From: Escherichia coli
Lineage (GTDB): Bacteria > Pseudomonadota > Gammaproteobacteria > Enterobacterales > Enterobacteriaceae
Reading direction: 5' to 3' (one strand)
Assembly (NCBI RefSeq): GCF_044324875.1
Contig: NZ_CP172185.1
Length of the DNA: 64,000 bases
In this document: positions 12,001 through 18,000 of the stretch, one piece after another
How the letters are laid out: the number at the start of each line of letters is the position of its first letter
Numbering within the stretch: position 1 is the first letter of the stretch
Made by a program: the position numbers

Positions 12001-15000
12001 GAGCGTCATTAAGATCGCGCCCGCTGGTATTGGACTGGGTTAACAGATGTCCGCCCTGATCCACCAGCGTGACGTTTCCCGGCGGCAGACCAGCAACCGC
12101 GCTGGAAACCAGATGCACAATGGCGCTAATTTGCCCTTCATCGAGTGCGCGCCCAGGTAACAGATTTACCGTCACCGATGCAGAAGGGGATTTTTGTTCA
12201 CGGACGAATAAAGACGGTTTCGGCATTGCCAGATGTACGCGCGCCCCTTTTACCGGGCCGATAGTTTCGATGGTACGAGAAAGCTCGCCTTCCAGCGCCC
12301 GCTGATAATTCACCTGTTCGCTGAACTGGCTGATACCAAACTTTTCCTGATCGAGCAGTTCGAAACCGACCGCGCCGCCTTTGGGCAAACCTTGTTGTGC
12401 CAGGCGCAGACGCAGTTCGTGAACTTTATCTGCCGGAACTTCAATAGCGCCGCTGGCTTCGCTGAAGCGGTAAGGAATATTCATTTGCGTCAGTTGGCTG
12501 ACAATTGCGCCACCATCCTGATCGGAAAGATTGCTGAATAATGTGCGGTAGTCGGGGGCTTTCGCCCACAGGATCAGTGCGACCATGACCGCCACTGCTG
12601 CGGAACCGGCAACAATCAATGGAATTTTCGGATTCGCACGCAGGCGATTAAGCCACTCAAGAGATTTTGTCTGGGCTGCAGTCGCATTCATCGCGCACCT
12701 CGTGGCTGATTATGGACGGCGTTATTGGCAAAGTGGAACAAGACTCACTCCCGGGTCAGCAAACTCGAAAAATTGACGCTCCCATTATTTGTGCTTTCGT
12801 TTTTTTCTATCCGCCAATAAACCCGTTTTTTTGTTGCTATTTAGCGCCTTTGTCTTATTGACTTACTGGTAGGCTTTGCTACCAGAAATTATCCGGGAGA
12901 TGAAAATGTCAGCGATACAGGGGATTGAAGGGGTTATCAGCCAGTTACAGACCACGGCGATGAGTGCACGTGCGCAGGAATCACTGCCGCAACCGACCAT
13001 TAGTTTTGCCGGGCAGCTGCACGCCGCGCTCGATCGCATAAGCGATACACAAACAGCCGCCCGCACGCAGGCAGAAAAATTCACTCTCGGTGAACCCGGC
13101 GTGGCGTTAAACGATGTGATGATCGATATGCAAAAAACCTCAGTTTCAATGCAAATGGGGATTCAGGTGCGTAATAAGCTGGTGGCGGCGTATCAGGAAG
13201 TGATGAGCATGCAGGTGTAGGTTGTGTAACCTGTTGTTAATTACATCCGATCTCACCGCGTGGGGCATGGATGGGGCAAACTCACTCTATCCTAGATTCT
13301 ACGTCAGTACTTCAAAAAGCATAATCAAAGCCTTGATAAATATGCATTCCTTCGAAATTCAGCTTTCACCCATTGGGTGAAAGAAAAGTGCTCAAAAATA
13401 TGTTAAATTATCAGCTTTTATGACTCGATATATGGTAAAATAATAGTAAGAAAAGTAGTAAAAAGGGGTTCTAATTATGATTAATAAAATTGATTTCAAA
13501 GCTAAGAATCTAACATCAAATGCAGGTCTTTTTCTGCTCCTTGAGAATGCAAAAAGCAATGGGATTTTTGATTTTATTGAAAATGACCTCGTATTTGATA
13601 ATGACTCAACAAATAAAATCAAGATGAATCATATAAAGACCATGCTCTGCGGTCACTTCATTGGCATTGATAAGTTAGAACGTCTAAAGCTACTTCAAAA
13701 TGATCCCCTCGTCAACGAGTTTGATATTTCCGTAAAAGAACCTGAAACAGTGTCACGGTTTCTAGGAAACTTCAACTTCAAGACAACCCAAATGTTTAGA
13801 GACATTAATTTTAAAGTCTTTAAAAAACTGCTCACTAAAAGTAAATTGACATCCATTACGATTGATATTGATAGTAGTGTAATTAACGTAGAAGGTCATC
13901 AAGAAGGTGCGTCAAAAGGATATAATCCTAAGAAACTGGGAAACCGATGCTACAATATCCAATTTGCATTTTGCGACGAATTAAAAGCATATGTTACCGG
14001 ATTTGTAAGAAGTGGCAATACTTACACTGCAAACGGTGCTGCGGAAATGATCAAAGAAATTGTTGCTAACATCAAATCAGACGATTTAGAAATTTTATTT
14101 CGAATGGATAGTGGCTACTTTGATGAAAAAATTATCGAAACGATAGAATCTCTTGGATGCAAATATTTAATTAAAGCCAAAAGTTATTCTACACTCACCT
14201 CACAAGCAACGAATTCATCAATTGTATTCGTTAAAGGAGAAGAAGGTAGAGAAACTACAGAACTGTATACAAAATTAGTTAAATGGGAAAAAGACAGAAG
14301 ATTTGTCGTATCTCGCGTACTGAAACCAGAAAAAGAAAGAGCACAATTATCACTTTTAGAAGGTTCCGAATACGACTACTTTTTCTTTGTAACAAATACT
14401 ACCTTGCTTTCTGAAAAAGTAGTTATATACTATGAAAAGCGTGGTAATGCTGAAAACTATATCAAAGAAGCCAAATACGACATGGCGGTGGGTCATCTCT
14501 TGCTAAAGTCATTTTGGGCGAATGAAGCCGTGTTTCAAATGATGATGCTTTCATATAACCTATTTTTGTTGTTCAAGTTTGATTCCTTGGACTCTTCAGA
14601 ATACAGACAGCAAATAAAGACCTTTCGTTTGAAGTATGTATTTCTTGCAGCAAAAATAATCAAAACCGCAAGATATGTAATCATGAAGTTGTCGGAAAAC
14701 TATCCGTACAAGGGAGTGTATGAAAAATGTCTGGTATAATAAGAATATCATCAATAAAATTGAGTGTTGCTCTGTGGATAACTTGCAGAGTTTATTAAGT
14801 ATCATTGCAGCAAAGATGAAATCAATGATTTATCAAAAATGATTGAAAGGTGGTTGTAAATAATGTTACAATGTGTGAGAAGCAGTCTAAATTCTTCGTG
14901 AAATAGTGATTTTTGAAGCTAATAAAAAACACACGTGGAATTTAGGTTAGACTATAAATAGAAAAAGGCGTTTTGACAGACTATTCATGTTGTTGTTAAT

Positions 15001-18000
15001 TCGTCTCTTCCAGAATAAGGAATCCCATGGTTAAAAAATCACTGCGTCAGTTCACGCTGATGGCGACGGCAACCGTCACGCTGTTGTTAGGAAGTGTGCC
15101 GCTGTATGCGCAAACGGCGGACGTACAGCAAAAACTTGCCGAATTAGAGCGGCAGTCGGGAGGAAGACTGGGTGTGGCATTGATTAACACAGCAGATAAT
15201 TCGCAAATACTTTATCGTGCTGATGAGCGCTTTGCGATGTGCAGCACCAGTAAAGTGATGGCCGTGGCCGCGGTGCTGAAGAAAAGTGAAAGCGAACCGA
15301 ATCTGTTAAATCAGCGAGTTGAGATCAAAAAATCTGACTTGGTTAACTATAATCCGATTGCGGAAAAGCACGTCGATGGGACGATGTCACTGGCTGAGCT
15401 TAGCGCGGCCGCGCTACAGTACAGCGATAACGTGGCGATGAATAAGCTGATTTCTCACGTTGGCGGCCCGGCTAGCGTCACCGCGTTCGCCCGACAGCTG
15501 GGAGACGAAACGTTCCGTCTCGACCGTACCGAGCCGACGTTAAACACCGCCATTCCGGGCGATCCGCGTGATACCACTTCACCTCGGGCAATGGCGCAAA
15601 CTCTGCGTAATCTGACGCTGGGTAAAGCATTGGGTGACAGCCAACGGGCGCAGCTGGTGACATGGATGAAAGGCAATACCACCGGTGCAGCGAGCATTCA
15701 GGCTGGACTGCCTGCTTCCTGGGTTGTGGGGGATAAAACCGGCAGCGGTGACTATGGCACCACCAACGATATCGCGGTGATCTGGCCAAAAGATCGTGCG
15801 CCGCTGATTCTGGTCACTTACTTCACCCAGCCTCAACCTAAGGCAGAAAGCCGTCGCGATGTATTAGCGTCGGCGGCTAAAATCGTCACCAACGGTTTGT
15901 AATAGCGGAAACGGAATGGGGAAACTCATTCCGTTTTTGTTTATCGCCTTAGACGGCAAAAGCGCTGTCGCCCACCTGCGCTTGCGCATACCAGGCCATA
16001 AGCTCCGTGGTTCCTGGTTCTCCTTCCGCTGGCGCCCAGTGCGCATAGTCATCGGCAGCCACGGGTTGATAGCCACCGTGTTTTACTTCAAAAATTATGC
16101 CACCGGTATCCAGCGACAGCACGGCATGCCAGGTTCCTGCGGCCATCTCCAGCACCGTACAGGTTTCCCCCAATATCGCCCGATGGGTGACGGTACCCCG
16201 ATCGTCAAAATTCAGCACCACGAAACGACCCCTTAATGGCAACAGTAGTTCGAAGGTGTGAGGGTGTCGGTGCGGGCGCACGTAGGTTCCTGGTCTATTT
16301 CTGGTTTAAAATGGATACCTGATCCTGAACGTTTTCTGCCATCCACGATCCGTAAACGCAATAAACCCTTTGACCATCAGAGTGTCTCATTTGACACTCA
16401 TCACCACGTCGGATGTTGTTACGACCACAGACGCAACAGTAACCTCTGGATAATTTAATCTTCGTTCTTATTTTTATTAATATACTGCGTTATAAAAATG
16501 AGCGATTTTTGATAGTGGTAATTTTATTGTGCTTTAGAATGCTCCCTGGGTAATATAATTTATTAAACAGGAGTGTAAATGTTTCCATTAAATGATCTGT
16601 CGTTAAAAGCTCAGTCGGTTCAATTAAATAAAATCACATCTAATACTGAGTCTACGATAAAACAACAAGATTTAGTATCTGATGATGCAATGATAAATGA
16701 ATTATCAAGTGAGTTAGTCAGTTGTCTTGGAAATGGTAGGTTTACACCAATTAGTGAAGACAGCAAATTACTGAATATGCTGTCAGAACTTAAGTTGTTG
16801 CACTCAGAATATTTCGGATGGGGTGATTATAGTCTCTGGTTTCAAGGTTTCTCGATTTATGATAAGACAGGTTTTATCATGATAGAAAAAAGTCAGGGAG
16901 CTGGTAATCCACCCATTCGGCATACATTAGAGTTTATATCGACTAATATTGCAGAGTTTCTAGACAAGTTAACGAAAATTACAGATGCCAGACTTTGCAA
17001 AGGTTTCTGTGACTGGGCTAATTCAGTCAAAGAAGGCGCATCGAATGACTTCAAAGAAAATGTGGATATAGCATTGGTGAGATTGTTTAAATGTGTTGAA
17101 CTCCACAATAGTAAACTTGACTTAACAGATCTTCACTTGGGGTCTTTGCCACCTCTTCCAGACTGGATTGAGGTGCTTTCTCTTCGTCATAATGGCCTTG
17201 CCACAATACAGATTCCCAAATTCTGCAAAGAATTAGAACTCGATTTTAATAATTATATGGTATTTCCAAAAGTATCCGATGGAATTACCCAGGTCTCCGT
17301 AGATAATAATCTGATATCGCGTGTTGACTCATCTCCGTCAAAGGCTATGAAAATTTTTATTTATCGCAATAAAATATGGTAAATACCAGCAATGCCTGAG
17401 ACTACTAATCTGTTTAATTGTGGCGATAATAAGATAAAAAAATTCAATACTTCCCAAATCATCTGGAGACAGCACGTATGGAGTATAATATTGAGGTTGT
17501 CCCTGCGATACATAGCAATTTAAAATTACTTTTTATAGAATGTTATCCTATTAAAGAGGAGTTTTTAATGCCGTGGACTTTGACAGACATTACCTATGAA
17601 ATATCGCAGCGAAAATATATTGTTACGAATTCCGCTGATTATGATAAATATTCTGACATAGTCAAAAGGGGCGTAATAGATGGTAAGAATTAAATAGTTA
17701 GGCGCAATTGTGTCACTGGAATAGAGGTTTCTTGTGGCGCATGTGGAAGGAGCGTCTAAGGACAAGACATATGCGGCTGGTGATGAATAAAGGCGCAGCA
17801 CGTCGAATGCAAGAATGTGCTGCGTCTGGCTCATGGCAATTCATTATTTTCGCATAGCGTCAATGACAAAAATCGACTGTGTGGATCAAGTTGATAATCA
17901 GCAAACGGTTCGCAATCAACGAAACCATGATTCAAATAAAGTTGATGGCAGGCCGTAAATCCAGCCTGTGTACCCGTTTCTAAGCTCAGGCGATGAAGGC

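Follow-up and report, generated by a model that had tools for sequence, protein, structure and literature searches.

Known ISEcp1-bla arrangements

Within the CTX-M-1 cluster, the insertion sequence (IS) ISEcp1 and the bla gene are separated by spacers of 48-127 bp, which contain the named 'V and W sequences' (PMC3316993). A spacer of 80 bp is listed for CTX-M-1, of 48 or 127 bp for CTX-M-15, of 127 bp for CTX-M-55 and of 45 bp for CTX-M-64 (PMC10751039, Table 2). Transcription from the IS has been mapped in p628-CTXM, where the spacer is 48 bp. Primer extension revealed a single start, a G located 116 nt upstream of blaCTX-M-55, giving the outward promoter P1 of ISEcp1 as TTGAAA-N18-TACAAT-N6-G, and expression from this arrangement is constitutive (PMC4541600). 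The same promoter hexamers are given in PMC9330008 and PMC6403167. For the 127-bp spacer, P1 was described together with a weaker intrinsic promoter, P2 (Ma et al. 2011, as cited in PMC4541600). Here we describe a junction of this kind at positions 14843-15029 of a 64,000-nt stretch of Escherichia coli DNA (GCF_044324875.1, contig NZ_CP172185.1), hereafter the window. It is the textbook ISEcp1-blaCTX-M-1 arrangement, already known, and in this strain it is carried by the chromosome (Table 1).

We assign a probability of about 0.93 to the reading of this stretch as the canonical junction of an ISEcp1-blaCTX-M-1 transposition unit, with the origin, expression and location that follow. To judge from the established behavior of the family, the founding event would have been an ISEcp1 insertion ahead of a bla gene of Kluyvera origin, at a distance of 80 bp. 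The transposase would bypass its own right inverted repeat (IRR) in favor of a weakly similar sequence farther downstream, so that the IS, the spacer, bla and the start of orf477 move as one block of 3,003 bp, the spacer presumably being carried along unchanged in each move. Since its length would record the founding insertion, it would mark the CTX-M-1 sublineage. For its expression, bla would depend on an outward promoter of the sigma-70 type within the final 104 bp of the IS; the start of this promoter has been shown elsewhere on an identical IS. The predicted transcript would have a leader that spans the IRR and the 80-bp spacer, be translated from the Shine-Dalgarno sequence AAGGA (15017-15021), 5 nt before the ATG, and end at the hairpin past the stop codon, with bla probably expressed constitutively.

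Table 1. Positions in the window of the transposition unit, its components and the neighboring gene.
Feature	Position	Strand	Length	Basis or remark
fliE	12876-13220	+		
Target-site duplication TCTAT, left copy	13286-13290		5 bp	
Transposition unit ISEcp1-spacer-blaCTX-M-1-truncated orf477	13291-16293		3,003 bp	Identity with other records
Complete ISEcp1, IS1380 family	13291-14946	+	1,656 bp	
tnpA, ISEcp1 transposase	13477-14739	+	420 aa	NCBIfam NF033539
Outward promoter P1 in ISEcp1 3' end	14843-14872	+		Hexamers match the published motif
Predicted transcription start (G)	14879	+		Transferred by identity from p628-CTXM primer extension
Distal part of spacer	14947-14978	+	32 bp	Matches neither the 127-bp spacer nor native Kluyvera upstream DNA
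Proximal part of spacer, captured Kluyvera DNA	14979-15026	+	48 bp	Kluyvera locus L010
blaCTX-M-1	15027-15902	+	291 aa	Exact CTX-M-1 sequence, 876-bp open reading frame (ORF)
Terminator-like hairpin and T-run after bla stop	15904-15941	+		Folding compared with shuffles
Truncated orf477, WbuC-family cupin	15949-16281	-		5' end cut at the right boundary of the unit
Surrogate right end of the unit, ...GCACGTAGGTTCCTGG	16278-16293	+		9/16 positions match IRR
Target-site duplication TCTAT, right copy	16294-16298		5 bp	

The 80-bp junction and the CTX-M-1 sublineage

The IRR ends at 14946 and the bla ATG occupies 15027-15029, leaving a spacer of exactly 80 bp (14947-15026), as a preliminary description of this DNA had reported. 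That description also proposed an alignment with reference CTX-M-1 junctions. The same spacer length and sequence were recovered in a reference CTX-M-1 locus (L003) and in ten independent chromosomal CTX-M-1 loci, where the whole 187-nt stretch 14843-15029 is identical, and the spacer is also identical to that of a CTX-M-32 locus (L004). Longer probes of 287 and 1,016 nt are 100% identical to many plasmids annotated as carrying blaCTX-M-1. In both length and sequence, the junction is thus of the CTX-M-1 type.

We searched for this junction with a 130-nt probe spanning the IRR, the spacer and the start of the gene, under an E-value limit strict enough to exclude other spacer types. Matches were found in 242 PLSDB plasmids (241 at 100% identity among the matches listed) and in 82 of 5,426 complete E. 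coli genomes. Within these genomes there are 97 such places, 65 on plasmids and 32 in the chromosome. Alleles were typed in evenly spaced samples of these records. Among 60 plasmids, 51 have CTX-M-1, 8 have CTX-M-32 and one has CTX-M-58, while the 40 E. coli genome records comprise 23 with CTX-M-1, 16 with CTX-M-32 and one with an unnamed CTX-M. In other alleles, record spans and direct extraction from sampled loci gave spacers of 127 bp for CTX-M-3, 48 bp for CTX-M-15 (127 bp in one case), 127 or 48 bp for CTX-M-55, and 45 bp for CTX-M-64. These lengths, and that of 80 bp, are in line with the published ones (PMC10751039, Table 2; PMC3316993).

The preliminary description considered 80 bp characteristic of CTX-M-1. 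This holds against CTX-M-3 and CTX-M-15, which have other spacers, but the length is not exclusive to the CTX-M-1 allele. Because CTX-M-32 and CTX-M-58 share the 80-bp junction, the spacer is a marker of the CTX-M-1 sublineage (CTX-M-1, -32 and -58) and not of the allele; it is tied to the lineage because it lies within the mobile unit. The allele itself is called from the coding sequence, in this case exactly that of CTX-M-1. At the nucleotide level there is 100% identity to genes that AMRFinderPlus types as blaCTX-M-1 at 100%, and residues V77, D114, S140, D240 and N288 set the protein apart from CTX-M-3, CTX-M-15 and CTX-M-32. The NCBIfam blaCTX-M profile matches the ORF with 623 bits (cutoff 570), and 9,383 collection blocks contain the exact CTX-M-1 protein.

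Source of bla transcription

The 3' end of ISEcp1 contains the published P1 motif, pointing at the bla gene. The -35 hexamer TTGAAA (14843-14848) and the -10 hexamer TACAAT (14867-14872) are separated by 18 nt, with a TGn extension (TGT, 14864-14866) directly upstream of the latter. They lie in the final 104 bp of the IS, starting 103 nt past the tnpA stop (14739), so the preliminary description placed them correctly. The motif TTGAAA-N18-TACAAT occurs once in the window, compared with 0.01 occurrences expected from shuffles. The ISEcp1 copies of the window and of p628-CTXM have no mismatches over 1,656 bp, and by exact sequence identity the G mapped in p628-CTXM corresponds to position 14879, inside the IS. 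Transcription of bla would therefore begin 6-7 nt after the -10 hexamer, within ISEcp1, and a start at 14879 predicts a 5' leader of 148 nt (14879-15026). A regulatory structure in this leader was considered and rejected, since its predicted fold is no better than those of shuffled sequences (z = -1.56). At the other end of the gene, the hairpin after the stop codon has a folding energy of -23 kcal/mol (z = -5.3), and none of 200 shuffles folds as well. This hairpin is placed between the convergent bla and orf477 genes.

Several points weigh against the account proposed above. A looser consensus scan returns promoter-like sites at near chance frequency (9 versus 6.6 +/- 2.7 expected), and the P1 hexamers alone are weak evidence because such sites occur at chance density in the AT-rich IS. 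The start position has been transferred to an 80-bp arrangement from arrangements with spacers of 48 and 127 bp. Capture from the progenitor is shown for the proximal 48 bp of the spacer and not for its whole length, as the distal 32 bp were not traced to Kluyvera. Part of the stretch homologous to P2 is kept in the window spacer in an altered form, and a perfect -35 hexamer, TTGACA, is present at 14973-14978, within the distal 32 bp. Finally, fliE, tnpA and bla are all on the + strand. The last three of these observations bear on other possible sources of bla transcripts.

An intrinsic P2 (TTGACT...TTTCGT) has been described for the 127-bp spacer (PMC4541600, after Ma et al. 2011), and a native, Kluyvera-derived counterpart of this promoter in the 80-bp spacer might contribute to bla transcription. 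We consider any such contribution unlikely and a substantial one very improbable. The same source ranks P2 below P1 in strength and importance, and where P2 has TTGACT and TTTCGT the homologous window positions read CAGACT and ATTCGT. The TTGACA hexamer is 20 nt from the P2-homologous -10, when the usual gap is 16-18 nt, and the consensus scan placed no + strand promoter between 14873 and 15026. In addition, chromosomal Kluyvera genes are reportedly expressed only weakly without an IS (PMC3316993). Read-through from the tnpA promoter or from that of the co-directed flagellar gene fliE, as the supplier of most bla transcription in this chromosomal copy, is hardly credible: no + strand terminator-like site was found between fliE, tnpA and bla, but primer extension on an identical ISEcp1 detected only one start, at P1 (PMC4541600), and the unit provides resistance in many unrelated surroundings, so no particular upstream neighbor is needed.

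Transcription from P1 is the preferred explanation. The preliminary description had bla driven by the IS rather than by a native promoter, and the start mapped at P1 on an identical ISEcp1 (PMC4541600) supports the IS as the driver. The words "rather than a native promoter" are very likely right, though not to be taken as absolute.

Composition and origin of the spacer

The two parts of the spacer differ in their relatives. In Kluyvera intermedia INSAq229 (L010, NZ_JAKCNS010000011), a CTX-M-3-like gene lies in the chromosome without an IS, and the DNA ahead of it agrees with the proximal 48 bp of the spacer at 47 of 48 positions. These 48 bp are also homologous to the 48-bp spacer of CTX-M-15. 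The DNA upstream of the K. intermedia gene is colinear with the 127-bp mobile spacer. With its chromosomal gene free of ISEcp1, this locus can be used as a reference for the native context of the CTX-M-3 arrangement.

For the distal 32 bp, blastn-short and gapped alignment to the K. intermedia locus returned chance-level matches only, and no exact 24-mer match was found among 100,044 species-representative genomes. Two scans of JGI metagenome contigs also gave no match, which says little since the common mobile form is absent there as well. The possibility that the 80-bp spacer is a truncated 127-bp spacer was rejected, since the two are homologous over no more than the 48 bp next to the ATG. 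A 7-bp direct repeat, AGACTAT (14949-14955 and 14978-14984), flanks 22 bp of the spacer. Its interpretation as an insertion footprint was set aside, the chance of such a repeat in 80 bp being estimated at about 0.2. We take the distal 32 bp to be the 'V' and the proximal 48 bp to be the 'W' of the nomenclature used for these spacers, which reportedly comes from Eckert et al. 2006.

These comparisons suggest that the distal 32 bp could be the product of a separate capture or of an earlier rearrangement. Rather than stemming from the Kluyvera locus of blaCTX-M-3, they might descend from a progenitor lineage that has yet to be sampled, or be what an earlier insertion or rearrangement left behind, a tentative idea that we regard as rather doubtful. 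If true, it would mean that blaCTX-M-1 was captured separately from the 127-bp and 48-bp arrangements, in conflict with the suggestion of a single transposition event made in a 2012 review (PMC3316993).

The ISEcp1 element, the transposition unit and its chromosomal site

The IS upstream of bla has the size (~1.66 kb) and the imperfect terminal inverted repeats (CCTAGATTCTACG... and ...ACGTGGAATTTAGG) of ISEcp1, and RefSeq records 100% identical to it are annotated as such. The left inverted repeat (IRL) starts with CCTAGATTCTACG... at 13291 (13291-13306), and the IRR finishes with ...ACACGTGGAATTTAGG, its last base being 14946 (14931-14946). The IRL and the reverse-complemented IRR are alike at 12 of 16 positions. 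As in other IS1380-type elements, there is a single DDE transposase gene. Its product scores 329.6 bits against the IS1380 family transposase profile NF033539 (cutoff 180), and a protein identical to it is matched by PF13701 and PF01609. We also observed an inverted near-copy of the IRR (14882-14900), ~45 nt upstream of the IRR, which pairs with 14930-14948 in the predicted fold of the leader.

The unit reached the E. coli chromosome by one-ended transposition, duplicating TCTAT. The 5-bp duplications surround the IRL on one side and the surrogate right end on the other, and the flanks joined with one TCTAT form a contiguous sequence in other E. coli chromosomes, corresponding to the empty site. 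In ten independent CTX-M-1 insertions the identity with the window stops at the 16293 right end. These chromosomal insertions share the 187-nt promoter-plus-spacer stretch and the right end, while their 5-bp flanks all differ and are duplicated in most. The truncation of orf477 is also evident from its match to TIGR04366, limited to profile positions 47-132; identical records label it as WbuC family.

The unit lies in an integrase remnant, 70 bp beyond fliE, and has the same orientation as this gene. At this post-fliE site it is absent from all 5,426 complete E. coli genomes, the 32 chromosomal copies of the junction being elsewhere. Among the ten insertions (L011-L020), the unit ends in ...CCTGG or ...CCTGGT (window 16289-16294), with a length of 3,003 or 3,004 bp, which suggests a 1-nt cleavage wobble at the surrogate right end. 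Eight of these loci (L012-L019) come from the wastewater E. coli AVS0747 (CP124467), which has at least 8 chromosomal ISEcp1-blaCTX-M-1 units at different sites and one more on a plasmid; with so many copies, the unit must be actively transposing.

Outside the unit, the window consists of ordinary E. coli DNA (fli, fliC, uvrC and che/tar), and the flanking DNA contains the expected DsrA (606-692), C0465 (55377-55454) and three tRNAs (36849-37148). The flanks (1-13290 and 16299-64000) reach at most ~99% identity to any of the 5,426 complete E. coli genomes, with 98.5% in the fliC region, so that complete genomes offer poor coverage of the host lineage.

Significance

The extended-spectrum beta-lactamase unit in this chromosome is complete and belongs to the CTX-M-1 lineage. 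Units of this kind are typical of livestock-associated IncI1 and IncN plasmids, and the present one is presumably constitutively expressed and still able to move. With the unit fixed in the chromosome, resistance does not depend on plasmid maintenance. The length of the spacer can be used as an epidemiological marker of the CTX-M-1 lineage. The importance of the locus is routine, for resistance typing, and it has no bearing on an open mechanistic question.

Comparison with known systems

The closest relatives of the window unit are the ISEcp1-blaCTX-M-1-delta-orf477 units of IncI1, IncN and other plasmids (for example CP030839, NZ_LS999562 and NC_025142), which are 100% identical to it over 3,003 bp. 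Promoter, 80-bp spacer, gene and surrogate right end are all as in the window, and only the location differs, the window copy being chromosomal, 70 bp after fliE. In the units with blaCTX-M-32 and blaCTX-M-58, the IS 3' end and the 80-bp spacer are identical to those of the window, and CTX-M-32 differs from the window CTX-M-1 by one codon (D240G). Many CTX-M-32 loci have ISKpn26, of the IS5 family, within ISEcp1, between tnpA and the -35 hexamer (L004, 1404-2384). Promoter and 80-bp spacer are intact in the loci with ISKpn26.

The units of blaCTX-M-15 (48 bp) and of blaCTX-M-3 and blaCTX-M-55 (127 bp) have the same IS and the same P1, with an identical 104-bp IS end, and share with the window the homologous proximal 48 bp and the ribosome-binding site. 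On the other hand, the distal 32 bp of the window spacer are unrelated to the 127-bp spacer of CTX-M-3 and CTX-M-55, and the 80-bp form is therefore not a shortened 127-bp form. More distant counterparts are ISEcp1 with blaCMY-2, blaOXA-181 or rmtC, and the ISPme1 modules, which also move by one-ended transposition with a surrogate right end and where a complete outward promoter drives the captured gene, as in the window (PMC9330008). These IS1380-family captures differ from the window in their cargo genes and junction sequences.

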